From the NCBI GenBank assembly GCA_947053645.1, contig CAMRTM010000003.1, forward strand, positions 16,232 through 80,231: DNA of 64,000 bases. Reading direction: 5' to 3'. The DNA comes from an uncultured Bacillota bacterium (GTDB lineage: Bacteria > Bacillota > Clostridia > Christensenellales > UBA1242). Position numbers and translations under genes: made by a program. The notes beneath the pieces were generated by a model, which was given only the letters and a program-made list of their open reading frames with translations, was not told the DNA's origin and searched no databases. Positions 2,441 to 19,013 of this stretch are shown here, one piece after another; within the stretch, counting starts at the first letter, position 1, and every line of letters starts with the position of its first letter.

Positions 2441-3781
2441 TTTCAACATTTTTCTTATCTCACCAACAAGGGTTTGCATTTTGTGAGAAGTCTTAACACC
2501 GTCTGCAATTTTGTCACGAGAGTGCATGATTGTAGTATGATCTCGCCCTCCAAAAATTTTCCCAATAGATACAAGCGGTATTTCTAAGATGTCACTGATA
2601 AGGTAGATTGCAATCATTCTTGGCTCTACAACATCCTTACTCTTTTTCTTGCCTAAGATGTCTTCCTTAGTTACATCGAAATATTTGCATACTCCGTCAA
2701 TAATGGCGTCAGGGGTAAGCCCTTCATTTCGCTCTTCTTCTGCCTCGCCATTAAGGGCTTCCATGGCCTCTTCCATGCTGGCAGAGCGTTTTCCCATAAG
2801 GTTTGCAAGGAAATATACCTTTGAAAGCGTACCTTCAAGTTCACGGATGTTGGAGTCCACTCTCTCTGCAATGTAATCAATCACTTCGTCATCAATTACA
2901 TATTTTTCAATCTGGCATTTCTTTCTTAGAATCGCAATTCTTGTTTCAAGGTCTGGGGTTTGAATATCTTGAATAAGTCCCATAGAAAAACGAGAGCGCA
3001 GTCTGTCTGCCAGTGTTTTGATTTCCTTAGGTGGACGGTCTGATGTGATGATAATCTGCTTGTTTGCTTCATGAAGTTCGTTGAAAGTGTGGAAAAACTC
3101 TTCCTGTGTAGAAGGTTTTGTAGAGATAAATTGAATATCATCTATCATAAGCACATCAAGATTTCTGAATTTTGATCTAAATTCAAGGGTAGCCTTTGTT
3201 TTGGAAGGCGAGCCTAAACTTTCAATGTAGGCATTGGTAAATTGCTCACAAGTTACATACATTACTTTAAGGTTTGGATTAAATTCTCGTAAATAGTTTC
3301 CTACCGCGTGAAGAAGGTGGGTTTTACCAAGTCCAACACCGCCGTATATAAAGAGAGGATTGAATTTGTCCCCAGGATGCTCTGCCACCGCTCTTGCCGC
3401 AGCATAAACAAACTGGTTGCTTTTGCCTACGACAAAGTTGTCAAAGGTGTATTTTGCATTGAAAGGATTCTTGCTTACTTCCACTTCTTTTGCTCTTGCC
3501 TTCTTACCATTTTTTTCTACATAGGAGATTTCTTCATTTTGGTCAAGTACTTCCACTTCAATGTTTTCGCCCAGTATATCGTGTACCGCCTCTGTCAGTT
3601 TGTCCATATAGTTTCTTAAGATTTGATTTTTTGCTGAAGTAGAATTTGTACTGATTACAAGTTTGTTGTCCACAAGGTCAAGTACTTTTAAAGGTTTAAA
3701 CCACATAATAAATGATACATTTGATACCGTCAGTTGCAATTTCTCCAAAATTGTCTGCCATAAACTACTTAACTCTTGCAT
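2432..3781 (-). CDS. dnaA: Chromosomal replication initiator protein DnaA
   Basis: Walker A GGVGLGKTHL, sensor and box motifs, C-terminal DNA-binding ..FGGRDHTTIMHSRDKI... ATG at 3781 preferred because AGGTGG lies 5 nt upstream; the track start at 3790 is a GTG inside the RBS. Confidence 0.95.
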   Translation of the reverse strand: MQELSSLWQTILEKLQLTVSNVSFIMWFKPLKVLDLVDNKLVISTNSTSAKNQILRNYMDKLTEAVHDILGENIEVEVLDQNEEISYVEKNGKKARAKEVEVSKNPFNAKYTFDNFVVGKSNQFVYAAARAVAEHPGDKFNPLFIYGGVGLGKTHLLHAVGNYLREFNPNLKVMYVTCEQFTNAYIESLGSPSKTKATLEFRSKFRNLDVLMIDDIQFISTKPSTQEEFFHTFNELHEANKQIIITSDRPPKEIKTLADRLRSRFSMGLIQDIQTPDLETRIAILRKKCQIEKYVIDDEVIDYIAERVDSNIRELEGTLSKVYFLANLMGKRSASMEEAMEALNGEAEEERNEGLTPDAIIDGVCKYFDVTKEDILGKKKSKDVVEPRMIAIYLISDILEIPLVSIGKIFGGRDHTTIMHSRDKIADGVKTSHKMQTLVGEIRKMLKGG

Positions 3782-3899
3782 ATAAGCCACCTTTTAATAT
3801 TGATAGTAAAATCATAACATCCACGATTTTTTTTGTCAAGCATTCATGAACGATTGAATAGGGTTTGATTTTTCTTTATAGAAGTGATAATATAAGAGC

Positions 3900-4979
3900 G
3901 TGAAGATAAGCGAACTGACACTAAAAAATTACCGCTCCTATGAAAACGCAAATATAAAGTTTTCTGATGGACTTAATGTGCTTATAGGCAAGAACGCACA
4001 AGGAAAGACAAATCTCCTTGAAGCGATTTTTTTCACGGTTATTGGCAAAAGTTTTAAAACCAGTAAAGAAAAAGAGGTTATCTCTTGGGGAGAAGATAAT
4101 AGTTATGTCAAAGCGGTGTTTAATAAAAAATATCGTGATGAGGTAATTGAACTTATCTTTAATAGTCAAACAAAGAAAGTAATCAAGGTGGATGGAATTC
4201 CGCTTCATAGAATAGGCGAACTTATGGGTTGTGCGAATGCAGTTTTCTTTTCGCCGGACGAACTTAAACTTATCAAAGATAGCCCAGAAGAGAGAAGGCG
4301 TTTTATGAACATCGATATTTCCCAAACAGATAAAAGATATTTCTACCTGCTTGGAAGGTATGATAAAGTTCTTGCAAACAGAAATAAACTTTTAAAGACT
4401 TCGCAGGATATTAAAACTTTAAAGCAGACAATTGACATCTGGGACAGGGCGTTATGTGACATAGCAAAGAAGATTGCAAAGGCAAGATATAACTTTTTGC
4501 AGGAACTTGCGCCTTTTGCCTCCATGGCACACAACTATATTTCAGGCGGAGAGGAAAAACTTGAATTAAAGTATAGCGGACTGACTGATGATATAGATGG
4601 TTATGACGCGGTTATGCTTAAATCCCTTCAAAAGAATATTGATAAAGATTTTAAACTAGGCTATACAAGCGTGGGTGTACATCGAGATGATATTGACATT
4701 TATCTAAACGGGGTGGAAGTGAAAAACTTTGGATCGCAAGGCCAGCAAAGGACGGTTGCACTTTCTATGAAACTTGCCGAACTAGAGATTATCAAAAATA
4801 GAATAGGAGAATATCCTATCTTGCTTCTTGATGATGTGTTCAGTGAACTAGATAAATTTCGTAGAAACCGTCTTTTAAAGTTTACATCAAAAACGCAAAC
4901 AATACTAACAACCACAGATTTTGACGCTGAAAACCTTGATGCAAAAGTATTTAAAATAGAGAAAAATAAAATAAACTAG
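3900..4979 (+). CDS. recF: DNA replication/repair protein RecF
   Basis: GTG start. N-terminal Walker A GKNAQGKTNLLEA. C-terminal GSQGQQRT and LLLDDVFSELD, as in RecF/SMC-like ATPases. Confidence 0.9.
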   Translation: MKISELTLKNYRSYENANIKFSDGLNVLIGKNAQGKTNLLEAIFFTVIGKSFKTSKEKEVISWGEDNSYVKAVFNKKYRDEVIELIFNSQTKKVIKVDGIPLHRIGELMGCANAVFFSPDELKLIKDSPEERRRFMNIDISQTDKRYFYLLGRYDKVLANRNKLLKTSQDIKTLKQTIDIWDRALCDIAKKIAKARYNFLQELAPFASMAHNYISGGEEKLELKYSGLTDDIDGYDAVMLKSLQKNIDKDFKLGYTSVGVHRDDIDIYLNGVEVKNFGSQGQQRTVALSMKLAELEIIKNRIGEYPILLLDDVFSELDKFRRNRLLKFTSKTQTILTTTDFDAENLDAKVFKIEKNKIN

Positions 4980-6416: not shown

Positions 6417-8249
6417 TTAATTCTCCTCTTCAAATTGACTGTTGTATAGGTCGGCGTAAAAGCCACCTTTTGCAAGTAAGTCGTTGTGATTTCCTTGCTC
6501 TATAATATCGCCGTCTTTCATTACTAAAATGAGGTCGGCATTTTTTATTGTAGAAAGTCTGTGTGCGATTACAAATGAAGTGCGTCCCTCAGTGAGTTTA
6601 TCCATCGCCTTTTGTATAAGCACTTCTGTACGGGTATCGACACTGCTTGTTGCTTCATCTAGTATTAGCATAGGACTATTTTGTATCATCGCTCTTGCAA
6701 TGGTCATAAGTTGTCGTTGTCCTGCTGAAATGGAAGTGTTATCATCTAGTATTGAATCATATCCATGTGGCAGACTTTTAATGAAGTGATGTACTCCGCA
6801 TGCTTTGCAGGCAGTCTTCACATCCTCGTCAGTTACGCCTTCCTTGCTGTAGACAATGTTGTCGCGTACACTGCCTTCAAAAAGCCAAGTGTCTTGAAGC
6901 ACCATAGAGAAAAGGTCGTGTACATTTTCTCGTGTCAAGGTACTGATTGGTACGCCATCAATTAATATCTCTCCGTCATCCACTTCATAGAATCTCATAA
7001 GCAGGTTTACAAGTGTGGTTTTTCCAGCCCCAGTTGGGCCAACAATAGCAACCTTTTGTCCGGCTTTCACTTTTGCTGAGAAGTCTTTAATAATTGTTTT
7101 ATCTGGGTTATAGCCAAACCTAACATTTTTAAATTCTACATTACCTTTTATATCTATTAAGATATCTTTTTTGTGACTTTCATCCATAAGTTCTTTTTCA
7201 TCAAGGAATTCAAAGACACGCTCACTTGCGGCGGCGGTGGATTGAAGATTGTTGAATGCCTGCGCAAGTTGTGCAAGAGGTTGATTAAAAAGTCTTACAT
7301 AAAGCATGAAAGCGATAATTACGCCAAAGGAAATTTGACCACTCATAGTAAGCACCGCACCTACGACGCAAACGGCAACATAGCCGAAATCTCCAATAAA
7401 GTTCATGATAGGCATCATAAGGCCAGAGATAAACTGAGATTTCCAACCGCTGTTATATAGACGATTATTAATTTCTTCAAATTTTGCTTTAGTTTCGCGT
7501 TTGCCGTTGTAGACATTGACAATATCATGACCAGAGTAAACCTCTTCAATATGACCGTTAATATTGCCAAGTTCTTCTTGTTGTGCCTTGAAGTGTTTCT
7601 GAGAAAATTTCATAACAAGTGCAATAAATACAAAACCAATCAAACTTGCACCAATGGCGGTTAGTGCCATAATCCAGTTTGTGATAAACATCATTACTAC
7701 ACTTCCTACAAGCAAGGTAATAGAACTTACGAGGGTAGTAATCGAGTTACTGAGTGTCTGACCAATGGTATCGACATCGTTTGTTACACGACTAAGCACA
7801 TCACCGTAAGGTGTGCTATCCATATATTTAAGTGGAAGTTTATTAATTTTTGAGGAAATATCCTTTCTCATGCGTTTTGAAAGACGCTGAGTAATAGTAG
7901 TCATTATGAAGCCTTGAACATAACTGAATACCGCACTTAAAGAATAGATGATAACTAGAAAGATGCCAATTTCAATTATCTTTTGCATTTCCACAGGAGT
8001 GCCAAGACTAATGAGAGTTTTGTTAATTTCATCAAATACAGGAAGTGAGTTCCTAATCAAGTCGGTCAGGTCACTTATTTTATTAGGGCCTATAAGAGTA
8101 AGTACGGTACCTGCCACCGCGAAAAGGATTGCGATTATAATCCCCCATAAGTGTCTTTTAGAGTACTTGATAAGTTTACCAAAAGAGGCTTTAAAATTTT
8201 TAGGTTTTTCAATTGCGGCCATCGGTCCGCTCATAGGTTTCTTAGCCAT
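6417..8249 (-). CDS. ABC transporter permease/ATP-binding protein (exporter half, heterodimer partner 2)
   Basis: Six-TM N-terminal domain. Walker A GPTGAGKTT, signature SAGQRQ, Walker B LILDEATSSVD. Confidence 0.85.
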   Translation of the reverse strand: MAKKPMSGPMAAIEKPKNFKASFGKLIKYSKRHLWGIIIAILFAVAGTVLTLIGPNKISDLTDLIRNSLPVFDEINKTLISLGTPVEMQKIIEIGIFLVIIYSLSAVFSYVQGFIMTTITQRLSKRMRKDISSKINKLPLKYMDSTPYGDVLSRVTNDVDTIGQTLSNSITTLVSSITLLVGSVVMMFITNWIMALTAIGASLIGFVFIALVMKFSQKHFKAQQEELGNINGHIEEVYSGHDIVNVYNGKRETKAKFEEINNRLYNSGWKSQFISGLMMPIMNFIGDFGYVAVCVVGAVLTMSGQISFGVIIAFMLYVRLFNQPLAQLAQAFNNLQSTAAASERVFEFLDEKELMDESHKKDILIDIKGNVEFKNVRFGYNPDKTIIKDFSAKVKAGQKVAIVGPTGAGKTTLVNLLMRFYEVDDGEILIDGVPISTLTRENVHDLFSMVLQDTWLFEGSVRDNIVYSKEGVTDEDVKTACKACGVHHFIKSLPHGYDSILDDNTSISAGQRQLMTIARAMIQNSPMLILDEATSSVDTRTEVLIQKAMDKLTEGRTSFVIAHRLSTIKNADLILVMKDGDIIEQGNHNDLLAKGGFYADLYNSQFEEEN

Positions 8250-10018
8250 TATAGTTCCTCCTTTGATAATTGCGATAATGCAATTTCTTTGTAAACTTCG
8301 CAGGTATTCAGAAGTTCGTCATGGGTACCCATACCCACCATTTCACCTTCGTTCAGCACAATAATTTTATCTGCATGTTTGATTGTTCCAATTCGCTGAG
8401 CAACAATAAGACAAGTCGCGTGCGAAAGGTATTTATTAAGCGCTTTACGAAGTTTCTTATCTGTTTTGTAGTCAAGAGCGGAAAAAGAATCGTCAAATAT
8501 GAAAATCTCTGGGTTGCGTGCAATGGCTCTAGCAATAGAAAGCCTTTGCTTTTGACCTCCAGAAACATTACTTCCGCCTTGTGTTATTTCGCTGTCATAT
8601 CCCTCTGGCATTTTTTCCACAAAATCCTTTGCTTGTGCAATTTTTATCGCATTTTTAATTTCTTCCTCGGTAGGTTTCGCATCAATATCATCGCCGAAAG
8701 AAATATTACTTGAAACACTTCCGCTGAAAAGAAAGGCTTTTTGTGCAACATATCCAAGTTTGTTGTGAAGGTCTTGAATTTTATAATCCTTAACATTCAC
8801 TCCGTCAACAATAACTTCGCCTTCAGTGGCGTCGTAGAAACGAGGGACAAGGTCAATAAGAGTACTTTTCCCACTTCCAGTCGAGCCTATGAATGCCACT
8901 GTTTCTCCTTTTTTTACAGTAAAATTGATATCGCGCAGAACATATTCGTCTGCATCTGGATATTTAAAGGAAACATGCTTAAATTCAATTTCGCCTTTAA
9001 CTGGAGAATGTATGTCATATTCGCCGTGTCCGTCTTGTACGCTTGGTACTGTATCTAGAATTTCATTGATTCTTTTAGCAGATACCGTTGCTCTTGGAAG
9101 CATGATAAAAATCATAGTCAGCATTACAAATGACATGACAATCTGCATCGCATAGGAGGAGAATACCACCATATCACTGAAAAGTGTAAGTTTAGTAAAA
9201 GGCTCTGTCATTGCTGTATTATTGATAAGCGCTGCACCAATCCAATATATAGCAAGAGAAAGACCAGACATACTTATACTCATTACAGGTCCCAAAAGAC
9301 TCATCATACGGTTTGAAAATAAACTAGTCTTTGTAAGTTCACTGTTTGCCTTTTCAAACTTTTCCGCTTCATAGTTTTCAGCATTATAGGCACGCACAAC
9401 TCGTAGACCGGTAAGATTTTCGCGAGTAACGCGGTTTATGTTGTCAGTCAAAGTTTGCATTTTTTTAAACTTAGGAAGTACAATGATAATCAGCATTATA
9501 ATTACTGCAAGTATGATTGCGATACAAACAACAGTAGCCACCGACCATTGCCAACTTTTGCCTACAATTTTAAATATAGCCCAAGTTGCAAGTATTGGTG
9601 CTTTGATAAGTACTTGAAGCCCCATAGCAACAAAGCGTTGGATTTGGGTTACATCATTCGTCGAGCGTGTAATTAAACTTGCGGTAGAAAAACTTTTCAT
9701 TTCTTTTTTGGAAAAGGTTTGCACCTTGTTAAAGATGTCGCTACGCACCAATTTTGCCATACCAGAAGAAATTTGTGAGGCGAAAAAGCCCACTCCCACC
9801 GAAAGAAAAGCGCTGGCAAGTGCACAAGCAAGCATATATCCGCCATTTATCCACACTTCTGTCATTGAATTACCTTCAGTTGTTACAAGCAAGGTAATTT
9901 TGCTCATATATTCTGGCACTTTAAGGTCAAGCCAAACCTGAAGCACGATAAAAGCAATGCTGGCAACAATCATAAGCCAGTGTTTAAGTTTCAAATTTTT
10001 ACCTAATATTTTTAACAT
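8249..10018 (-). CDS. ABC transporter permease/ATP-binding protein (exporter half, heterodimer partner 1)
   Basis: TM domain plus GSTGSGKST, VSGGQKQR, IFIFDDSFSALD. Stop overlaps the start of the downstream half-transporter gene. Confidence 0.85.
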   Translation of the reverse strand: MLKILGKNLKLKHWLMIVASIAFIVLQVWLDLKVPEYMSKITLLVTTEGNSMTEVWINGGYMLACALASAFLSVGVGFFASQISSGMAKLVRSDIFNKVQTFSKKEMKSFSTASLITRSTNDVTQIQRFVAMGLQVLIKAPILATWAIFKIVGKSWQWSVATVVCIAIILAVIIMLIIIVLPKFKKMQTLTDNINRVTRENLTGLRVVRAYNAENYEAEKFEKANSELTKTSLFSNRMMSLLGPVMSISMSGLSLAIYWIGAALINNTAMTEPFTKLTLFSDMVVFSSYAMQIVMSFVMLTMIFIMLPRATVSAKRINEILDTVPSVQDGHGEYDIHSPVKGEIEFKHVSFKYPDADEYVLRDINFTVKKGETVAFIGSTGSGKSTLIDLVPRFYDATEGEVIVDGVNVKDYKIQDLHNKLGYVAQKAFLFSGSVSSNISFGDDIDAKPTEEEIKNAIKIAQAKDFVEKMPEGYDSEITQGGSNVSGGQKQRLSIARAIARNPEIFIFDDSFSALDYKTDKKLRKALNKYLSHATCLIVAQRIGTIKHADKIIVLNEGEMVGMGTHDELLNTCEVYKEIALSQLSKEEL

Positions 10019-10500: not shown

Positions 10501-11373
10501 ATGAAAACAGCAATAGTAACAGACAGTAATTCAGGCATAACTCAGGCCGAGGCAAAAAAGTTTGGTGCATTTGTAATTCCAATGCCATTTATTATAGGGG
10601 AGGATGAGTTTTTTGAAGATATAAATCTCACACAGGAAGAGTTTTATCAAAAACTCTTGACAGGGGAAGATATATCCACCTCTCAGCCAGCAATAGGGCA
10701 GGTTACAGAGTTTTGGGATAAATTATTAAAGGAGTATGATGAGATTGTTCACATTCCGATGTCAAGTGGGTTAAGTGAGTCTTGCAATACCGCTCTTCGT
10801 CTTGCTGAGGATTATAGTGGCAAAGTACAAGTGGTAGATAATCACAGAATTTCGGTTACCCAAAAGCAGGCGACTATTGATGCTGTTAATATGGCTAAGG
10901 ATGGATTCAGTGCTAAAGAGATAAAATCATATCTAGAGCGTACAGCAAAAGATTCCAGTATTTACATTATGGTTGACACATTAAAGTACTTAAAAAAAGG
11001 TGGAAGATTAACTCCAGCGGTGGCGGCGATAGGTACCCTTCTTAAAATAAAACCAGTACTTCAAATTCAAGGCGGAAAACTTGATACCTATGCCAAGGTC
11101 ATGAGCAGTCAAGTGGGTAAGGTAAAAATGATTGAAGCAATGAAAAAAGACTTGGCGGAAAGATTTAAAGAATTTGCCGCAAATGAAGAAATGAAAATTT
11201 TTGTTGCATACACTAATTGTTTGGAAAGGGCAGAATTATTCAAACAAGAAATTGCAAAAGCAATACCAAATGTAGAAGTTGCTTTCGTTGACCCATTGTC
11301 TTTAAGCGTTGCGTGTCATATTGGCAGTGGAGCATTGGCGGTTGCTTGTGCAAGAAAATATGTAAAAAAATAG
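10501..11373 (+). CDS. DegV family fatty-acid-binding protein
   Basis: MKTAIVTDSNSG.. start, ..TSQP.., ..LKYLKKGGRL.. motifs characteristic of DegV. Confidence 0.85.
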   Translation: MKTAIVTDSNSGITQAEAKKFGAFVIPMPFIIGEDEFFEDINLTQEEFYQKLLTGEDISTSQPAIGQVTEFWDKLLKEYDEIVHIPMSSGLSESCNTALRLAEDYSGKVQVVDNHRISVTQKQATIDAVNMAKDGFSAKEIKSYLERTAKDSSIYIMVDTLKYLKKGGRLTPAVAAIGTLLKIKPVLQIQGGKLDTYAKVMSSQVGKVKMIEAMKKDLAERFKEFAANEEMKIFVAYTNCLERAELFKQEIAKAIPNVEVAFVDPLSLSVACHIGSGALAVACARKYVKK

Positions 11374-11605
11374 AAAATTTTAAAAAATCGCTATAAGCAC
11401 TAAAAATAAAGGAAAGTAGACTAATTTTAAGGCCTACTTTTTTTGAAGAATAAATGTATAAAAAATCGCCTCTTTCCCTTTAAAATAAAGGGATTTAGCA
11501 GATATAAACAAGTGTTTAAATTTTTTTTGATTTATTTAAAAATCGTTTTGCGATTTGATTTTTATTATGTATAATCGGTTTTGTAAATTGCTTAAGGAGA
11601 ACAAA

Positions 11606-12379
11606 ATGAAAAAGATTGTGATTATCACTGGTGCAAACAGTGGCATTGGACTTGCTACTGCGAAAAGATTTATTTCCAAAGGTTATACCGTGTATGGAAT
11701 TTCAAAAGGAGAATATGAGGGTAACGACTTTGTAAACTATAATGCTGATGTAAATGATGATGCAAGGATGCAAGAAATAATTCAAGAAGTTTTTGAAAAA
11801 GAAGGTAAGATTAATGTCTTTGTAAACAACGCAGGTTTTGGTTTAGGTGGTGAACTTGTAGAAACAAAGGCGGAAGATATTCAGAGGCTATTTTCTACAA
11901 ATCTTACGGCTGTGGCGGTAAATACTGCACTAGTTGGAAAGATTATGAAGAGTCAGCGTCACGGCAAGATTATAAATACATGTTCTCTTTCAGCGCTCTT
12001 TCCACTTCCTTATCAGAGTGCATACAGTGCAAGCAAAGCAGGCATTGAAGTGCTTTCAAGGACAACACGAGGGGAACTTAAACCTTATGGCGTATATGTC
12101 AGCACAGTACTTCCAGGGGATGTAAAAACAGGCTTCACTGATGCGAGGGTGAAGGGAAAGATTGATGACAAGAAAGTGGATAAATCCATGCAAAAATTTG
12201 AAAAGTATGAGCGTCAAGGCATGAGTCCTGATAAGGTAGCAAAAAAGATTGTTTCACTTGCTGGAAAGAAAAGACCTGCGCCAAGAGTGAGTGTAGGCTC
12301 TTTAAAACTGCTAATCATTTTACAAAAGACATTGCCTATAAGATTTCTTGATTGGTTAATTAGAAAAATCTATTGTTAG
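11606..12379 (+). CDS. Short-chain dehydrogenase/reductase (SDR)
   Basis: TGANSGIG cofactor motif, NNAG, catalytic YSASK. Start moved to the ATG at 11606, which has AAGGAG upstream. Confidence 0.85.
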   Translation: MKKIVIITGANSGIGLATAKRFISKGYTVYGISKGEYEGNDFVNYNADVNDDARMQEIIQEVFEKEGKINVFVNNAGFGLGGELVETKAEDIQRLFSTNLTAVAVNTALVGKIMKSQRHGKIINTCSLSALFPLPYQSAYSASKAGIEVLSRTTRGELKPYGVYVSTVLPGDVKTGFTDARVKGKIDDKKVDKSMQKFEKYERQGMSPDKVAKKIVSLAGKKRPAPRVSVGSLKLLIILQKTLPIRFLDWLIRKIYC

Positions 12380-12394
12380 AGGAGATATGAAGAA

Positions 12395-13576
12395 ATGGAT
12401 ATATTTAAAAAAATGCAAACAAGACAACTTTTTGATGAGGTAAAGGATGCGGGTGTCTACCCATATTTTCACGAACTTACATCTGGACAGGACACTGTAG
12501 TTGAAATGGAGGGGCATGAAACAATCATGATAGGTTCAAACAACTATCTAGGACTTACCTCTCATCCAGAAGTAATTGAAGCGGGAGTTAAGGCGATTGA
12601 AAATTATGGATCAGGCTGCTCAGGCTCACGCTTTTTAAACGGTACACTTGATATGCATGTCGAACTTGAAAGAGAACTTGCCAAATTTTTACATAAAGAG
12701 GCAGTGGTTACTTTCAGTACAGGCTTTCAATCCAATCTTGGCATAATTAGTGCTGTTGTAGGACGAAATGACTATATCGTTTGCGATAAAGAAAATCATG
12801 CAAGTATATATGATGCGGCAAGACTTAGTTTTGGGAAAATGGTAAGATTTGAACATGCTGACATGGCGGACCTAGAAAGAAAACTGAAAGAAATTCCACA
12901 GGACAAGGGTATTTTAATCGTCACTGATGGCGTATTCAGTATGGGCGGAGATATATGTAAACTTCCTGAAATTGTAACTCTGGCAAAGAAGTACGGTGCA
13001 AGAGTAATGGTCGATGATGCCCATGGGCTTGGTGTACTTGGCAAGCATGGAAGAGGTACCGCTGAGCATTTTGGTCTTGAAGACGAGGTTGATATCATAA
13101 TGGGAACCTTTTCAAAATCTCTTGCTTCTTTAGGTGGGTTTATGGCTGCCTCTCAGAGAGTGGTAGAATATGTAAAACACACATCAAGACCATATATTTT
13201 TAGTGCAAGTATAACGCCAGCATGCGTGGCAAGTGCGCTCACTGCACTTAAGATTCTTGAAAGGGAGCCAGAAAGGGTACAAGCACTTCGCGATATCAGT
13301 AATTATATGAGAGAGGGATTAAAAAGACTTGGTGTTCAAATTATAGATAGTGAAACACCTATCATTCCAATTTACACCTATGATGACTATAAAGCCTTTA
13401 TTGCTTGTAAAATGCTGCTCGAACGCGGAGTGTATGTCAATCCAGTAGTTACTCCAGCAACTCCTCAAGGGAAGGCGCTATTAAGAACAAGTTACACAGC
13501 CACCCATACCAAAGAGCAGATGGACAAAGCGATGAAAGCGATACATGATGTTCTATGTGAGTTAGAAATAATATAA
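12395..13576 (+). CDS. PLP-dependent alpha-oxoamine synthase, serine palmitoyltransferase-like
   Basis: GSNNYLGL, GSGCSGSRFLNGTLDMHVELE, DGVFSMGGD, DDAHGLG and the PLP lysine motif GTFSKSLASLGGF. From memory it sits closer to Bacteroidetes/Sphingomonas SPT-type sequences than to Kbl/BioF. Starts 15 nt after the SDR gene. Confidence 0.7.
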   Translation: MDIFKKMQTRQLFDEVKDAGVYPYFHELTSGQDTVVEMEGHETIMIGSNNYLGLTSHPEVIEAGVKAIENYGSGCSGSRFLNGTLDMHVELERELAKFLHKEAVVTFSTGFQSNLGIISAVVGRNDYIVCDKENHASIYDAARLSFGKMVRFEHADMADLERKLKEIPQDKGILIVTDGVFSMGGDICKLPEIVTLAKKYGARVMVDDAHGLGVLGKHGRGTAEHFGLEDEVDIIMGTFSKSLASLGGFMAASQRVVEYVKHTSRPYIFSASITPACVASALTALKILEREPERVQALRDISNYMREGLKRLGVQIIDSETPIIPIYTYDDYKAFIACKMLLERGVYVNPVVTPATPQGKALLRTSYTATHTKEQMDKAMKAIHDVLCELEII

Positions 13577-13652
13577 ATCTCCACTAGGAGATTTTATTTT
13601 GAAGTAGTGACAAAACTCTGCTACAATATATATCATAAATATTAGAGGACTT

Positions 13653-15587
13653 ATGAACAAATTTTGGAAATACTTTTTTGGTACATTCAAACAGGGCAAG
13701 TTTTTGCTTGCCACTTTTCTGACAAATGCCGGACTTATGTGTGTAGTCACCGTGCTTGCAAACTTATTAGATACACCTCAACTTACCTACTTGAATGCTT
13801 TTTTAGCGATTAACTATTTTGGCACCATGATTTCCTTTGGAGTATCGCAGTCGACAAATATATTTGTAAATCAAAGTATATCTTCTAAGTACAAAGTAAG
13901 GCAGTACACAAGCGCAGGTTTTTATATCGCAATTGCGGCATTAAGTATTTTTGAATGTATTCTTATTGCTTTCCCAGAGTTTATAATGGAGACCCTTGGC
14001 GACTTTGTTCCAAATGATTACACTTTTTATTACATTATGTGTGGTTATCTATTTTTAACAGGTATATCAAACTATATGCAAGATATGTTGCAGGCACTTC
14101 AAAAGTACAAGATAGAGTTCTTTTGTGAGATAATGCCAATTATAGTCACAATTATTGGCTTTATGGTGCTGTATTTTGCAGGTTTTTATTATTTGAATTA
14201 CATTGCTATAGTATATATCATAAGCGGAATAGTTAGTGTTGCAATAGCCGCTACTGCACTATTTAAAGATAAAAAATTTAAAATTAATCTTTTTAATAAA
14301 CTTACAATAAGATTCACGAGACACCAATGGATGATAATGCTAACAAATTTTTTTACAGAGGTAATATGGCAGGTAGGGTATTTTGCCACAAGCATGTTTC
14401 TCCTAAGGTTAAATGACGGAATATTCAATACCTATTCATATCTTGAAAATGTACTCGATATATTCAATGGTTTCCTCTTTGCCTACATTGGCATTACCTG
14501 CATAAGAATTACAAGATGTCTAGGCAGAGAACAATTTGAAAAGGCTAAACAGCATGCAAAGTATTCCATTATTGGCACGGTTATTATTTGGGCAGCCTAT
14601 TTTGTTGTAAGTTTGGTGCTAATTTACCCTCTTGCAATAGGTGCAAATAATGAGTATTTTTCACTTATGTTTTATGCCATACCTTGTTATGCGTTTATTC
14701 ATCTTGCAAGATTTCTTGCATGGAATTTCTCTTCCTATATGCTTAGGCTAGGTGGAAAATGCAAAGGGCTTTTGGTACTTGAAATTATAAACGTCGTGTA
14801 CCTCTTTGTGATGTGTGCAATTGTAAAATATCTTCCAGTAGATGTTTTCTTTGCATATTTCATTATCTTAGTGCCAGAACTCATCAAACTTGTAGTTTGC
14901 TTTATAATTTATAAGCGTGGCAAGTGGATTGCTAATATTAATGAAGATAACAATAGTTTAAAGAGTAAGGTAAAATGTGTAATATTTGCGTTTTACGATA
15001 CTATTTATTATGGTATAAATTGGTCTTTTTGGTATAGAATGGTTGGCGAGTGGTTTGATACACATTTTAAAGACATGTCTTTTGAAGAAAAGAAAAATTT
15101 GCTAAAAAAATATGGAGTGAGATATAGAAAACAAAATTTCAAATTGTCAGACAATGTGCTATGCAAAGTGTTAATTGAAATAGAGGGCAGTGCAAAACCA
15201 TGGCTTGAATATCGTGATCAATTAGAAATGCACACAGAGGAAAAGAAAGGTAAAGCAATCTCAAAAAAAGAACTTAAGCGTTTTGCAAAACTAGGAAAAC
15301 TTTACATTGTTTCAAACTCACATTTGTCAAATATAAAGCAAATCGCAGAATTTTACAACATAGATTTATCTTTATTTGAAAAAATTTATGTGAATGATTA
15401 CGAAACTAAAAATACAAGTAAAGATAAATATTTTAAAGAGATTATGGAAGAAAATAATCTTAAACCAGAGAATGTGTTAGTAATAGGCGATAGCAAACAG
15501 CAGGACATTTTGCCGGCTAAAAGATTAAAAATGCAATATTATAGATGTAAAAACGGGTTTAAGTATCTTGATGTAATTGAAAAATAA
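13653..15587 (+). CDS. Polytopic membrane protein (MATE/MOP flippase-like) fused to a C-terminal HAD-like domain
   Basis: About 430 aa with roughly 12 hydrophobic segments, then HAD motifs LYIVSNSH and VLVIGDSKQQD. Motif I reads VIFAFYDT instead of DxDxT. Confidence 0.6.
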   Translation: MNKFWKYFFGTFKQGKFLLATFLTNAGLMCVVTVLANLLDTPQLTYLNAFLAINYFGTMISFGVSQSTNIFVNQSISSKYKVRQYTSAGFYIAIAALSIFECILIAFPEFIMETLGDFVPNDYTFYYIMCGYLFLTGISNYMQDMLQALQKYKIEFFCEIMPIIVTIIGFMVLYFAGFYYLNYIAIVYIISGIVSVAIAATALFKDKKFKINLFNKLTIRFTRHQWMIMLTNFFTEVIWQVGYFATSMFLLRLNDGIFNTYSYLENVLDIFNGFLFAYIGITCIRITRCLGREQFEKAKQHAKYSIIGTVIIWAAYFVVSLVLIYPLAIGANNEYFSLMFYAIPCYAFIHLARFLAWNFSSYMLRLGGKCKGLLVLEIINVVYLFVMCAIVKYLPVDVFFAYFIILVPELIKLVVCFIIYKRGKWIANINEDNNSLKSKVKCVIFAFYDTIYYGINWSFWYRMVGEWFDTHFKDMSFEEKKNLLKKYGVRYRKQNFKLSDNVLCKVLIEIEGSAKPWLEYRDQLEMHTEEKKGKAISKKELKRFAKLGKLYIVSNSHLSNIKQIAEFYNIDLSLFEKIYVNDYETKNTSKDKYFKEIMEENNLKPENVLVIGDSKQQDILPAKRLKMQYYRCKNGFKYLDVIEK

Positions 15588-15612
15588 ATGCACCCATATT
15601 CGGGTGCATTTT
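15588..15612. terminator. Bidirectional hairpin terminator
   Basis: atgcaccc-atattc-gggtgcat flanked by A and T runs, between convergent genes. Confidence 0.7.
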
Positions 15613-16723
15613 AAAATGTTAAAATGTTTTTCTTACCAAAGCGATGTAAAGTTTTTGTGTATCTTGCTTTAGCCTTTACAGAAGAAATGGCTGTTTTCTT
15701 CTGCCAGCCGAAAGGCAGAAATTTAAATTTTCTTTTTCTAAATAATTTCTTTTTAGTGAAGTTAAATTTAGATTTGCGTATGCAGCGTACCTTATATTTT
15801 AGGGTTGGATTCGCATTTCTAATTTTATCCTTTCGTACAGAGGCTTCTCTTAGGAAGAAACTCTCTCCAAGTGTCTCTCGCACTGTGGTTGAGTAAACAA
15901 AACTATTTGGATCCGCTTGTTTAATGATGCTTTTCATTGCAGGCGCCTGCTCATTAGTAACAAGACATACAAGCAACTTCTTTTCTTTATGTGAAAACAT
16001 TCCTTCAGCGGGAAGTTTTGTCACCCCTCGATTAAATGTTTCAAGGATTTTCTCTGCCACCTCTTCATCCTTGTCGCAGATGATATAGAATGCTCGTACA
16101 GCTTTCGAGCCGTCAAGAACGATATCCACCATTTTTCCAGATATAAAAATTGCAATTATGGTGTATAGTCCGCTTGTTATATCGCCGCTTAATAGAATAC
16201 TGCTCACTACAACTATTGCATTAATTACCATAAGGCATTGACCGGTTTTAATTTTTGGGAATGTTTTAGTAACAAGTGCTGCCACTATATCACTTCCCCC
16301 GGTCGAGCCACCAACCCTAAATACAATTCCCGACCCAAGCCCAAGAAGGGATGCCCCAATGACGGCTGCGAGTACAATATCGTTTTGAATTATTAGAGCG
16401 TCGATGACAACAAATTCACTTGCAACAGTAAAGATACCCATACCTATTAAAGTGAGAAGTCCAAACCTCCAGCCAAAAGATTTTAGAGCAATAAGAAATA
16501 AAACAAAACTTATACTAAAATATAAGATTGAAGGAGAGATGATGATATCTGCTCTAGCAAGTAGACTGGTGATAACAGTACATAGCCCCATAAATCCGCT
16601 AGGAGTTACATTGTTTGGTGTATAAAAACAGTTATAGGCGATACCCATAAAAAAACATCCAAGAATGATACCTAAAACTTGAATAGCGAATTGCCAATAT
16701 TTATTATGTAATATGTTTTTCAT
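15611..16723 (-). CDS. YitT family membrane protein (DUF2179) with a basic C-terminal tail
   Basis: GGSTGGSDIVA motif and five TM segments typical of YitT. The last ~85 aa are very K/R-rich. Confidence 0.7.
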   Translation of the reverse strand: MKNILHNKYWQFAIQVLGIILGCFFMGIAYNCFYTPNNVTPSGFMGLCTVITSLLARADIIISPSILYFSISFVLFLIALKSFGWRFGLLTLIGMGIFTVASEFVVIDALIIQNDIVLAAVIGASLLGLGSGIVFRVGGSTGGSDIVAALVTKTFPKIKTGQCLMVINAIVVVSSILLSGDITSGLYTIIAIFISGKMVDIVLDGSKAVRAFYIICDKDEEVAEKILETFNRGVTKLPAEGMFSHKEKKLLVCLVTNEQAPAMKSIIKQADPNSFVYSTTVRETLGESFFLREASVRKDKIRNANPTLKYKVRCIRKSKFNFTKKKLFRKRKFKFLPFGWQKKTAISSVKAKARYTKTLHRFGKKNILTF

Positions 16724-16842
16724 ATACCTTCCTCAAGTCAAATATACTCGAATTGAAAATAAAACACAAATATTTTATCGTTATTTAGGAATTATTGTTA
16801 ATTTTTTTTGCAACAATAAATAAAAAGGCGTATATTAAAAAT

Positions 16843-17718
16843 ATGAAGTGTGCTTTTATATACAACCCAAACAGTGGGAAGGTAAAACAAGAAAAGTATA
16901 AAGATTATATTGTAAACAAACTGCTATCCAAATATGAAGTGGTCGATGTCTTTCCTTCCCAAAAACCAAGGCATGCGACCTTACTTGCTAAAGAGGCGTG
17001 CGGCAGATATGACACTCTTGTAGTGATGGGCGGGGATGGAACACTTAGCGAAGTTATAAATGGTATTGCAGAGGAAGAAAATAAACCGGTAATAGGGTAC
17101 ATACCCCATGGCACTGTCAATGATGTTGGGCACAGCCTAAAACTTCCTAGAAATGTAAAAAAATGTATAGATGTAATTCTTAAAGGCAAAACTCTCAGCC
17201 ATGATATTTTTAAGGCAAACGATAAATATGGAATATATGTATGTTGTGCAGGACTGTTTACTGAAACAAGTTATTCTACTCGTCAGAAAGATAAGAAGAG
17301 AATAGGAAAACTTGCCTACTTTTTTCATGGTTGTAAAAAACTATTAAAAACAAATAGCGTAGACTTAAAGATAAGTTTTGACGGCGGGGAGATTGAAGGT
17401 AGATTTGCCTTTGTACTTGTTTTAAATTCCCGTTCGGTGGCAGGATTTAAAATAAACGGCAAAGCAAAACTAAATGACGGAAAAATGGATATCCTGCTTG
17501 TAAAAGACAAGGGCAAAAAGGTATCAATGAAGGGTATTTTTAAAGTCTTTTCGCTTTTTGTGTGCGGATTGCAAAGACAGGGAATTAGGTTAAGATTAGA
17601 TAGATTTACAGTGGAAACAAGGGATGACGAAGTGATAAATATAGATGGAGAAAATGCTTTTACTGGCGGTTTTGATTTTCAAGTTTTAAAAAATGGAATA
17701 GAAATAATCGTACCTTAG
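16843..17718 (+). CDS. Diacylglycerol/lipid kinase family protein (YegS/DagK-like)
   Basis: NPNSGK.., VVMGGDGTLSEVINGI, GTVNDV motifs. ATG at 16843 preferred over the upstream TTG. Confidence 0.8.
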   Translation: MKCAFIYNPNSGKVKQEKYKDYIVNKLLSKYEVVDVFPSQKPRHATLLAKEACGRYDTLVVMGGDGTLSEVINGIAEEENKPVIGYIPHGTVNDVGHSLKLPRNVKKCIDVILKGKTLSHDIFKANDKYGIYVCCAGLFTETSYSTRQKDKKRIGKLAYFFHGCKKLLKTNSVDLKISFDGGEIEGRFAFVLVLNSRSVAGFKINGKAKLNDGKMDILLVKDKGKKVSMKGIFKVFSLFVCGLQRQGIRLRLDRFTVETRDDEVINIDGENAFTGGFDFQVLKNGIEIIVP

Positions 17719-17765: not shown

Positions 17766-19013
17766 ATGAACTATAATCCATTTTTGGAAAAGCCAAAGAA
17801 ACTCGAAAGTCTAATTATGAGTTGGAAAGACCTTGCACCTAAATCATATAATAAAGATGAAGTAGACCCATATACAAGGGTGCGATGTATATTAATGAAT
17901 GGTACTGAATACGAAGCAGTATGGTCAAAGCACCATTTCAATAGACATTGTGACAATAATGATGTAAGACGAAGTGTCGCTCTTATTAGAGATATGGAAC
18001 AGCAACAGCAAAAACTTATTTCTGGGCTGAAACCACTTGATGAAAACCTGCTTGAAACCACGATTGGTTATGAACAACTTGCGGTAGACCTGACTGCAAT
18101 TTTGGCAGCGAGGGCAAAAGATAAACATGTGAAGGATGCACTTGACTTTGCACTTCTTGAAGACTTTGACCACCTTTATAGATATGCCAATTTGCTTGAA
18201 ACTGATATGGGGGCTCATGCCGAAAAGTATGTTGGCGATTATACTGAAATTATGCCGGCAAGACCGACTATCTCTCATCATCGTCACCCTTATGATAATA
18301 TCAAAGAGGCGATTTGCAATAAGACGGCAGACCCAATTACAAAACTTGATGTATCTATAATTACGGCGGCGGAACAGCAAACCATGAATTACTATATGAA
18401 CCTAGGACAGTTCTATAAAAACAAAATGGGGCGGGAACTGTATACTGAAATTGCTATGGTTGAAGAAGAGCATGTTTCGCAGTATGGCAGTTTGATAGAC
18501 CCAAATTGCTCCATGTGTGAAGAAATGCTTATGCACGAATACATCGAAAGTTATCTATATTTTTCAATGCTTAATGACGAAACCGACCCTTATATAAAAA
18601 AGATATGGGAAAAACTATTTGAACAGGAACTTGCCCATCTTCATGAAGCACTTAAAATGTTAAGAAAGTTTGAAAAAAAAGACTGGAGTGATGTCATACC
18701 AAATGGAGTATACCCAGACCTTATCAGTTTTCATTCAAATAAAGATTATATTAGGGGAATTTTAGGAAAGACAGTAACCCTGACTGGTGACCGTGAAAAA
18801 TATATTAAAGTTAATAAACTGCCAGATAAAGCCAACTTCTTTAAATATCAAAATAAGGTAAATGCAAAGCCAGAAGAGGAGGCAGGACATCAAGTTATCA
18901 CCCAGCATATTGAAAGATTTGGACAGGACTACCGCGTAGAAGATAAAGACAATCCAGTCAAGGAACTGCGTAATCGTAAGAAAGACAATTTCACACTCGG
19001 AAGAACAAAATAA
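17766..19013 (+). CDS. Ferritin-like diiron-carboxylate domain protein
   Basis: Repeated ExxH-type motifs (LLEDFDH, MVEEEHVSQY, EQELAHLHE) spaced as in four-helix-bundle diiron proteins. Confidence 0.45.
   Translation: MNYNPFLEKPKKLESLIMSWKDLAPKSYNKDEVDPYTRVRCILMNGTEYEAVWSKHHFNRHCDNNDVRRSVALIRDMEQQQQKLISGLKPLDENLLETTIGYEQLAVDLTAILAARAKDKHVKDALDFALLEDFDHLYRYANLLETDMGAHAEKYVGDYTEIMPARPTISHHRHPYDNIKEAICNKTADPITKLDVSIITAAEQQTMNYYMNLGQFYKNKMGRELYTEIAMVEEEHVSQYGSLIDPNCSMCEEMLMHEYIESYLYFSMLNDETDPYIKKIWEKLFEQELAHLHEALKMLRKFEKKDWSDVIPNGVYPDLISFHSNKDYIRGILGKTVTLTGDREKYIKVNKLPDKANFFKYQNKVNAKPEEEAGHQVITQHIERFGQDYRVEDKDNPVKELRNRKKDNFTLGRTK

Follow-up and report, generated by a model that had tools for sequence, protein, structure and literature searches.

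Sphingolipids of bacterial origin in the gut are credited to Bacteroidota, and effects on host immunity and lipid metabolism have been reported for them (PMC9278070, PMC10865984). The closest described systems for the locus presented here are the serine palmitoyltransferases (SPTs) of S. multivorum (PDB 3A2B/8GUH) and of Bacteroides (Spt), the reductase KdsR (BT_0972) of B. thetaiotaomicron (PMC9278070), and the Caulobacter-type ceramide pathway (Spt, bCerS and CerR; PMC11087976). We analyzed a 64,000-nt window of contig CAMRTM010000003.1 (contig 3 of assembly GCA_947053645.1; positions 16,232 to 80,231, forward strand), in which a gene for a short-chain dehydrogenase/reductase (SDR) directly precedes one for an SPT-like alpha-oxoamine synthase. 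Judged by sequence, the pair is likely to make a sphinganine-type base from serine and scavenged acyl chains. The host is a mouse-gut Christensenellales bacterium with an 874-kb genome (19 contigs, 95% complete) that contains sporulation genes such as spoIIID, and near-identical DNA was found in mouse-gut metagenomes of 12 studies. The two genes in question are the following.

11606..12379, plus strand: classical SDR, predicted 3-ketosphinganine (3-ketodihydrosphingosine) reductase (adh_short, 148 bits)

12395..13576, plus strand: alpha-oxoamine synthase, predicted SPT of the Bacteroidota-related type (NF047600, 569 bits)

The window synthase has the fold, length and pyridoxal 5'-phosphate (PLP) lysine of the S. 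multivorum and Bacteroides enzymes. It differs from Bacteroidota SPTs in its position on a separate, monophyletic Bacillota/Mycoplasmatota branch below the 640-bit cut-off of the SPT model, and in its host, a Gram-positive-type spore former in which no genes of type II fatty acid synthesis (FASII) were found, so that its acyl donor, unlike that of Bacteroidota SPTs, would be scavenged. The SDR shares the Gly-rich NADP(H) motif and the YxxxK motif of KdsR, whereas with the KdsR model it reaches only 189 of the 400 bits required, barely more than with generic SDR models. BT_0972 is not known to adjoin spt in Bacteroides; the window genes lie 15 nt apart. The Caulobacter-type pathway uses a dedicated acyl carrier protein (ACP) and ACP synthetase. 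In the window, by contrast, the pair is linked to neither a bCerS-like gene nor a dedicated ACP gene, and the SPT is Bacteroidota-related. Both systems comprise an SPT start and a reductase, yet the Caulobacter type acylates before it reduces (PMC11087976), unlike the order proposed below. By sequence, the pair is thus SPT-like plus KdsR-like on a separate Bacillota branch, fails both equivalog thresholds, and is predicted by analogy to work like Bacteroidota Spt and KdsR (PMC9278070).

Among the NCBIfam models, the synthase scored best with that of the SPTs of the CFB group (NF047600; 568.9 bits, equivalog cut-off 640). Scores were lower with a BioF/Kbl-related subfamily model (426 bits), the beta- and alpha-proteobacterial SPT models (422 and 349 bits), two Kbl models (421 bits for NF005394, cut-off 460; 349 bits for TIGR01822, cut-off 493), BioF (TIGR00858; 391 bits, cut-off 426) and HemA (274 bits). 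Sequence scores against the PDB ranked S. multivorum SPT first (436 bits), followed by Thermus AOS (ThAOS; 314), Sphingomonas SPT (302), Kbl (290), CFAT (272) and CqsA (134). The alignment with PDB 3a2b spans 385 residues with zero gaps at an identity of ~55%, estimated by eye, and tblastn gave 52–56% identity to Bacteroidota SPTs, compared with 38% to E. coli Kbl and 33% to BioF. With a ratio of nonsynonymous to synonymous substitution rates (dN/dS) of 0.01–0.02 against its orthologues, the SPT is under strong purifying selection.

The residues binding PLP and the carboxylate and hydroxyl groups of serine in S. multivorum SPT are named in the paper on its crystal structure (PMC10196870). The window synthase is identical at 23 of 26 of them, and the kept PLP and L-serine residues include Lys244, His138, Asp210, His213, Asn52, Gly80, Ser81, Ser185, Thr241 and Ser243. 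The three exceptions (Ser53Asn, Ala79Ser and Met271Ile) are pocket differences, and they count in favor of a synthase that makes some other amino-ketone lipid, which the SDR would then reduce: a 1-deoxy or glycine-derived base, a cysteate-derived sulfonolipid base, or a CqsA-like signaling alpha-hydroxyketone. The same can be said of the score below the SPT equivalog cut-off, of the low-rate acceptance of Ala, Gly and homoserine by S. multivorum SPT (PMC10196870), and of the close relationship between CFAT and SPT (PMC13692747). However, all residues named for the network around the L-serine hydroxyl and carboxylate are kept, and at Ser81 the synthase retains the serine of SPT, where CFAT has an alanine (Ala82; PMC13692747). 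Together with this serine, the PDB scores (CFAT 272 and CqsA 134 versus SPT 436 bits) led us to reject a CFAT identity, and we regard a different amino-ketone product in general as unlikely.

The same assignment was obtained from a maximum-likelihood tree of 54 sequences. Its references were SPTs of Bacteroides, Prevotellaceae and Saprospiraceae, whose representatives score 711, 686 and 672 bits with NF047600 (all >640), E. coli Kbl and BioF, and the lower-scoring paralogues of the host's order. One clade (100/100) joins the Bacteroidota SPTs, a Chloroflexota/Nitrospirota/Aminicenantes/Planctomycetota group and a Bacillota/Mycoplasmatota clade; the last of these is itself monophyletic (100/100) and contains the window's synthase. 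E. coli Kbl, BioF and the Kbl paralogues of the order, which score 646–663 bits with the Kbl model and group 100/100 with E. coli Kbl, all fall outside the SPT clade. Homology to SPT, conservation of the active site and membership in this clade are direct observations.

The scores and the tree also decide against a housekeeping role, in which the synthase would serve threonine catabolism as Kbl or biotin synthesis as BioF, with the SDR as an unrelated neighbor. Both models do yield matches (421 and 391 bits), and the window's synthase is the only alpha-oxoamine synthase of the host genome. These scores nevertheless lie under the respective cut-offs (460 and 426) and far under the SPT score, identity to the E. 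coli enzymes is low (38% and 33%), and the order's genuine Kbl orthologues sit elsewhere in the tree, joined to E. coli Kbl in a clade of their own (100/100). Furthermore, tblastn with E. coli Tdh, BioA, BioB, BioC and BioD gave zero matches in the host genome, and a bioD gene was not found in this 95% complete assembly by other means either. The housekeeping explanation is therefore largely refuted, and we consider it most improbable. A preliminary description of this DNA, made from its letters alone, had likewise read the synthase as SPT-like rather than Kbl or BioF. The synthase's profile scores, PDB scores and grouping with Bacteroidota SPTs bear this out, the clustering with Kbl or BioF that was named as grounds for refutation did not occur, and the remark that no tdh or bio genes are adjacent extends to the entire genome.

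The tree and the underlying searches also touched SPT-type genes in other phyla. Cultured Anaerolineae carry such genes, namely Longilinea arvoryzae KOME-1, Pelolinea submarina MO-CFX1 and Thermanaerothrix daxensis GNS-1 (L195, L210 and L213; matches at 3001-4161 or 3001-4149), as do metagenome-assembled genomes of Nitrospirota, Aminicenantes and Planctomycetota, likewise inside the SPT clade. These SPTs are 53–58% identical to that of the window, and two that were tested score 534–567 bits with NF047600. In two loci labeled Bacteroidales/Bacteroidaceae (L074, 122-1279, and L183, 3001-4155), the SPT falls inside the Bacillota clade. A search of the 1.6-Mb L074 genome for a second, Bacteroidota-type SPT found none, and the placement points to mis-binning, mislabeling or gene transfer.

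The SDR contains the motifs TGANSGIG and YSASK, confirming its earlier classification as a classical SDR. Of 216 NCBIfam models, KdsR (NF049977) matched best, with 189.3 bits. KdsR was also the best model for the SPT-adjacent SDRs of six other clades (192–284 bits), which are 34–70% identical to the window SDR. Of 81 SPT loci (80 related ones and the window), 35 have an SDR of the same family beside the SPT gene, in most cases immediately upstream and at times divergent or downstream, and no other gene family is consistently linked to SPT in these loci. At the genome level, a strong SDR orthologue is present in 13 of the 25 SPT-positive and 2 of the 15 SPT-negative genomes of the family sample, a positive but loose co-occurrence. 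The SDR is thus a conserved partner of SPT, and this gene linkage, like the homology above, was observed directly.

The next most common neighbors of SPT are generic ABC ATPases, Suf genes and spoIIAB-sigF, the last accompanied in a few loci by a dacF-type carboxypeptidase. In ~8–12 related loci (L043-L071 and others), SPT lies beside the forespore genes spoIIAB and sigF and a subtilase gene, and in 5 loci a dacF-type carboxypeptidase gene lies near spoIIAB-sigF-SPT. The position next to spoIIAB-sigF could reflect conserved synteny or a link to sporulation.

To describe the distribution of this SPT type, genomes were sampled at four taxonomic levels. Among 301 genomes of the order, about 94 carry it at 490–570 bits, and a second mode near 340 bits corresponds to Kbl. 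SPT is present in 25 of 40 other genera of the family (genomes of 0.8–1.4 Mb), in 16 of 30 other species of the genus, and in 15 of 400 other genomes of the phylum (~4%). Many members of the order have it, it also turns up in other parts of the phylum, and it has been lost often; its patchiness even within the genus indicates that it is dispensable. A literature search found no published account of SPT or sphingolipids in Christensenellales, Clostridia, Firmicutes or Bacillota. The pathway had initially been called unusual for the phylum; this holds for the searchable literature and not for the genomes, given that about a third of the sampled order and ~4% of the sampled phylum carry the gene.

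The inventory of lipid genes, again an observation, bears on the origin of the acyl chain. Neither ketoacyl synthase (PF00109) nor FabZ/FabA (PF07977) has a match in the host genome. PF00109 was found in 0 of 41 family genomes (41 genera, 0.8–1.4 Mb) and in 14 of 14 control genomes, and the whole family appears to be without type II fatty acid synthesis. Since no genes of this pathway were found, the acyl chain must be scavenged, and the membranes of the host must be built from scavenged fatty acids. In Firmicutes, the Fak/PlsX route converts a scavenged fatty acid to acyl-phosphate and then to acyl-ACP. The host genome carries one ACP, PlsX, PlsY, FakA and five DegV/FakB genes, one of which lies directly upstream of the SDR gene, and it is possible that this DegV protein (10501-11373) supplies scavenged acyl chains. 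The only gene for a FadD-like acyl-CoA ligase (contig C14; L085:236-1836, minus strand) is split at a G8 run into two overlapping frames of 195 and 359 aa, which could mean a pseudogene, a slippage switch or an assembly error. As we infer from these genes, the SPT would most probably draw on acyl-ACP, with acyl-CoA as the alternative should the ligase work.

DegV was also considered as a conserved partner of SPT. It is syntenic with SDR-SPT in close relatives only and lies within 6 kb of SPT in 11 of the 81 loci. This candidate was set aside as uninformative, as DegV is a multi-copy gene and the 11 loci are related to each other.

Based on these results, we propose the following mechanism for the SDR-SPT pair. 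FakA together with a DegV/FakB protein would convert a scavenged fatty acid to acyl-phosphate, from which PlsX would produce acyl-ACP, the likely route of supply; alternatively, acyl-CoA would serve if the frameshifted FadD-like ligase still works. The PLP-dependent SPT would condense L-serine with this long-chain acyl thioester to 3-ketosphinganine, which the SDR would reduce to sphinganine, probably with NADPH. The predicted end product is a sphingoid long-chain base. In this scheme, the substrates, the products, the acyl donor and the fate of the base are deduced from sequence.

Several points weigh against this proposal. The synthase scores below the NF047600 equivalog cut-off (569 vs. 640 bits), as do all Bacillota/Mycoplasmatota members in the searched samples of the order and phylum and in four further genomes, most of them at 490–571 bits. 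The amino-acid specificity of alpha-oxoamine synthases is not securely readable from sequence, and the proteobacterial SPTs, CFAT and HemA lie outside the tree and were compared by profile and PDB scores only. The SDR is far below the KdsR cut-off (189 vs. 400 bits), and KdsR leads the next, generic model (177 bits) by 12 bits only. A close orthologue of the window SDR is missing from about half of the SPT-positive genomes of the family, and some SPT-negative genomes nevertheless contain an SDR of this type. In addition, SPT is patchy within the genus (16 of 30 species), the sole acyl-CoA ligase gene is frameshifted at the G8 run, and the use of acyl-ACP by an SPT of this type is assumed. The analysis identified neither a ceramide synthase nor a head-group enzyme or exporter, with the limit that N-acyltransferases were not searched for, and no Bacteroides ceramide synthase family usable as a query was found in the literature. 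Taking these points into account, we still consider synthesis of a sphinganine-type base by the SDR-SPT pair the likely function.

Downstream of the pair lie genes for a membrane fusion protein and a lipid kinase, which the preliminary description had joined to it. It had placed SDR, SPT and fusion genes in one operon and proposed four steps, namely condensation, keto-reduction, flipping and phosphorylation. All of its gene positions and open reading frames were confirmed as placed. The surrounding features of the locus are as follows.

10501..11373, plus strand: DegV/FakB-type fatty-acid-binding protein (Pfam DegV, 212 bits; TIGR00762, 236 bits)

11548..11575, plus strand: sigma-70-like promoter candidate before the SDR gene (TTGCGA, 16 nt, TATAAT; consensus scan 10/12, pattern match only)

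13575..13601, plus strand: terminator-like hairpin and T-run after the SPT gene (scan; fold −10.1 kcal/mol, z −2.1)

13599..13636, plus strand: two overlapping promoter-like sites before the fusion gene (consensus scan 9–10/12, pattern match only)

13653..15587, plus strand: fusion protein, 644 aa, whole gene

13653..14951, plus strand: N-terminal 12-helix MATE/MOP-fold membrane domain of the fusion protein, residues 1–433 (Pfam MatE, AlphaFold, Foldseek)

14958..15587, plus strand: C-terminal cytoplasmic HAD-like domain of the fusion protein (HAD_2 and Hydrolase matches)

about 14988-15002, plus strand: degenerate HAD motif I, AFYDT (family alignment)

15586..15611, listed on the minus strand: terminator-like hairpin of 11 pairs between the convergent fusion and YitT genes (scan)

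15611..16723, minus strand: YitT-family membrane protein with DUF2179 (Pfam, 160 and 62 bits)

16795..17718, plus strand: YegS/DgkB-type lipid kinase with DAGK_cat and YegS_C (DAGK_cat, 104 bits)

The ATG start codon of the SDR gene is preceded by an AAGGAG ribosome-binding site, and the 15 nt between the SDR stop and the SPT start contain another (AGGAG). The tight coupling of SDR and SPT in the proposed three-gene operon thus stands, whereas co-transcription of the fusion gene is improbable, because a terminator-like hairpin and promoter-like hexamers sit between synthase and fusion. The hairpin 3' of SPT is kept in L092 and L093, and L117 has a different hairpin at the same place. SDR and SPT probably form a two-gene operon, and the fusion is probably a separate gene with its own promoter, as these sequence patterns suggest. 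Contigs of two mouse-gut RNA libraries (X17 and X18) overlap parts of the SDR, SPT and kinase genes, a weak hint of their expression; such contigs cannot show transcripts or co-transcription, DNA carry-over is possible, and uncovered parts carry no meaning. One further RNA-library contig on the HAD part of the fusion gene (~93% identity) probably comes from a related strain.

The architecture first described for the fusion protein, a MATE/MOP-like protein of ~12 transmembrane helices joined to a HAD-like domain, was borne out by profiles, AlphaFold and Foldseek. Pfam MatE matches the N-terminus at 26.1 bits (cut-off 24.9), and the AlphaFold model (pLDDT 84) shows a 12-helix MOP-fold domain followed by a Rossmann-like HAD domain. 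Foldseek matched the N-terminal ~430 residues with probability 1.00 to the MATE transporters PfMATE (3VVN/4MLB) and VcmN (6IDP) as well as to WzxE (9G9O) and MurJ (6NC9), at an overall TMt of about 0.57–0.79 (MATEs 0.76–0.79; outward-facing WzxE entries 0.75–0.78; MurJ 0.57–0.67). While the 12-helix MOP fold is common to all of them, sequence identity to solved MATEs is 10–16%. By its fold, the N-terminal domain belongs to the MOP/MATE superfamily, with a drug antiporter and a lipid flippase both as candidates. The C-terminal ~210 residues match HAD models. For this part, no PDB sequence match was found and the only matches were generic HAD-IA/IIIA ones, which leaves no clue to the substrate.

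The fusion family consists of 59 clusters of ~645 residues with uniform architecture, and stand-alone relatives exist for each half; we found no described MATE-HAD fusion. Two genomes of the genus, G239 and G204, contain a 446-aa MATE-only relative without the HAD domain. Like HAD-IA phosphatases, most family members have HAD motifs I–IV, whereas the window protein lacks both aspartates of motif I and keeps motifs II–IV (S554, K590 and GDSxxxD), exactly as had been read from the letters. Motif I is DFDDT in most members of alignment A1, and the nucleophile Asp is present in 18 of the 19 aligned members and missing in the window only. The orthologues in L092, L093 and L117 (86, 78 and 60% identical) all have DFDDT. 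The loss of both aspartates therefore appears private to the species or genome of the window. It takes at least three base substitutions, which disfavors a simple sequencing error, and a 99%-identical mouse-gut contig (X3, record 18) spans the site with none of its listed differences there; an exact-pattern scan of JGI metagenome contigs for the variant gave zero matches. The rest of the gene is intact, with a dN/dS against L092 of 0.04 for the membrane domain and 0.15 for the HAD domain. We propose from these sequences that the phosphatase is inactive in the host species, and its active relatives may be dephosphorylate-and-export devices.

Whether the fusion and the kinase belong to the same pathway as the SDR-SPT pair, which would then make, (de)phosphorylate, and flip or export a long-chain-base lipid, was assessed from their co-occurrence with SPT. 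The order SDR-SPT-fusion recurs in L092, L093 and L117, the closest relatives of the window, and in a second small clade (L011, L102 and L103) SPT lies ~1.1 kb from the fusion. Every one of the three intact fusions in the genus belongs to an SPT-positive genome, and two SPT-negative genomes contain degraded copies. These degraded copies, with an internal deletion or in-frame stops, are in G343 (C3:74825-75883) and G349 (C9:92425-93765), both without SPT. This genus-level pattern is all that points to a link, and it comprises too few genomes to carry weight. MOP-fold proteins also include lipid flippases such as WzxE and MurJ, and DAGK_cat kinases include sphingosine and ceramide kinases, both in keeping with a joint pathway.

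On the other hand, SPT lies no more than 7 kb from the fusion in just 7 of 33 loci. These form the two small clades just mentioned, and in the second clade an MscS gene intervenes. The other 26 loci show varied housekeeping neighbors (e.g., ThrRS, Dus, PGK and TIM). SPT is present in 25 of 40 family genera, whereas an intact fusion is present in 2, one of them without SPT. The hairpin and promoter-like sites separate the two genes, and the HAD nucleophile is lost here while SPT is strongly constrained. Joint occurrence of the three genes across genomes, suggested early on as a check, accordingly held for SDR and SPT (35 of 81 loci, loosely by genome) and failed for fusion and SPT (7 of 33 loci; 2 of 40 genera). 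The fusion is a small family of its own that is usually far from SPT.

The kinase, located 1.2 kb downstream of the fusion as initially reported, is indeed of the YegS/DagK type. It shares the DAGK_cat and YegS_C architecture of DgkB/YegS kinases and exceeds the subfamily cut-off of TIGR00147 (YegS/Rv2252/BmrU; 156 bits, cut-off 118.65), but it passes no equivalog cut-off (DgkB, PRK13337: 196 bits, cut-off 385). It is the sole DAGK_cat gene of the host genome. In the genus, 15 of 30 species carry it, namely 9 of 16 SPT-positive and 6 of 14 SPT-negative ones, a distribution independent of SPT that also argues against a joint pathway. Half of the small genomes of the genus seem to do without any DAGK_cat kinase. 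It is most likely a DgkB-like diacylglycerol kinase for diacylglycerol recycling, the simplest interpretation, and none of the analyses favored an action on sphingoid lipids.

Consequently, of the four proposed steps, condensation and keto-reduction are retained, and flipping and phosphorylation are not, as the distributions of fusion and kinase are not tied to SPT. We judge a single pathway comprising SDR, SPT, fusion and kinase to be quite improbable. The fusion is most likely unrelated to sphingoid synthesis; next to the predicted two-step SDR-SPT route, it would represent a separately transcribed, lineage-restricted transporter-phosphatase.

The remaining neighbors are conserved to different degrees. 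YitT is syntenic with the kinase in L001, L003, L004, L005 and L007, and the YitT-kinase pair lies near SPT in fairly close relatives only; YitT is a neighbor with no evidence for a role in the pathway. Upstream of DegV, a pair of MsbA-like ABC half-transporter genes (6417-10018, minus strand; 589 and 610 aa, the stop of one overlapping the start of the other) is syntenic in close relatives only. Downstream of the kinase, a 415-aa open reading frame (17766-19013, plus strand) matched no Pfam or NCBIfam family and, in the ESM Atlas, only clusters of 'hypothetical proteins' from Bacillota. It is 98, 94 and 86% identical to its counterparts in L092, L093 and L117, where the kinase reaches 84, 84 and 67%, and with a dN/dS of ~0.02 it is conserved far above its neighbors.

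New here are the family-wide absence of FASII genes, the tree with bona fide Bacteroidota references, the lack of a consistent SPT link for fusion and kinase, and the dead HAD motif private to the species. Removing the fusion and the lipid kinase as unsupported pathway members spares experimental effort.

Most genera of the family keep SPT, and some also a KdsR-like reductase, despite the absence of a ketoacyl synthase in all 41 genomes. For the claim that this genome-reduced family of gut Christensenellales converts fatty acids from host, diet or neighbors into sphingoid bases, we see the case as evenly balanced. Retention of SDR and SPT in an 874-kb genome points to a genuine benefit, even if SPT has disappeared from half of the genus. 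If the claim is true, the chain lengths of these lipids would be set by the environment and not by the cell. A large uncultured share of gut Clostridia would then also make sphingoid bases, and Gram-positive-type gut bacteria would constitute a second, overlooked source of gut sphingolipids.

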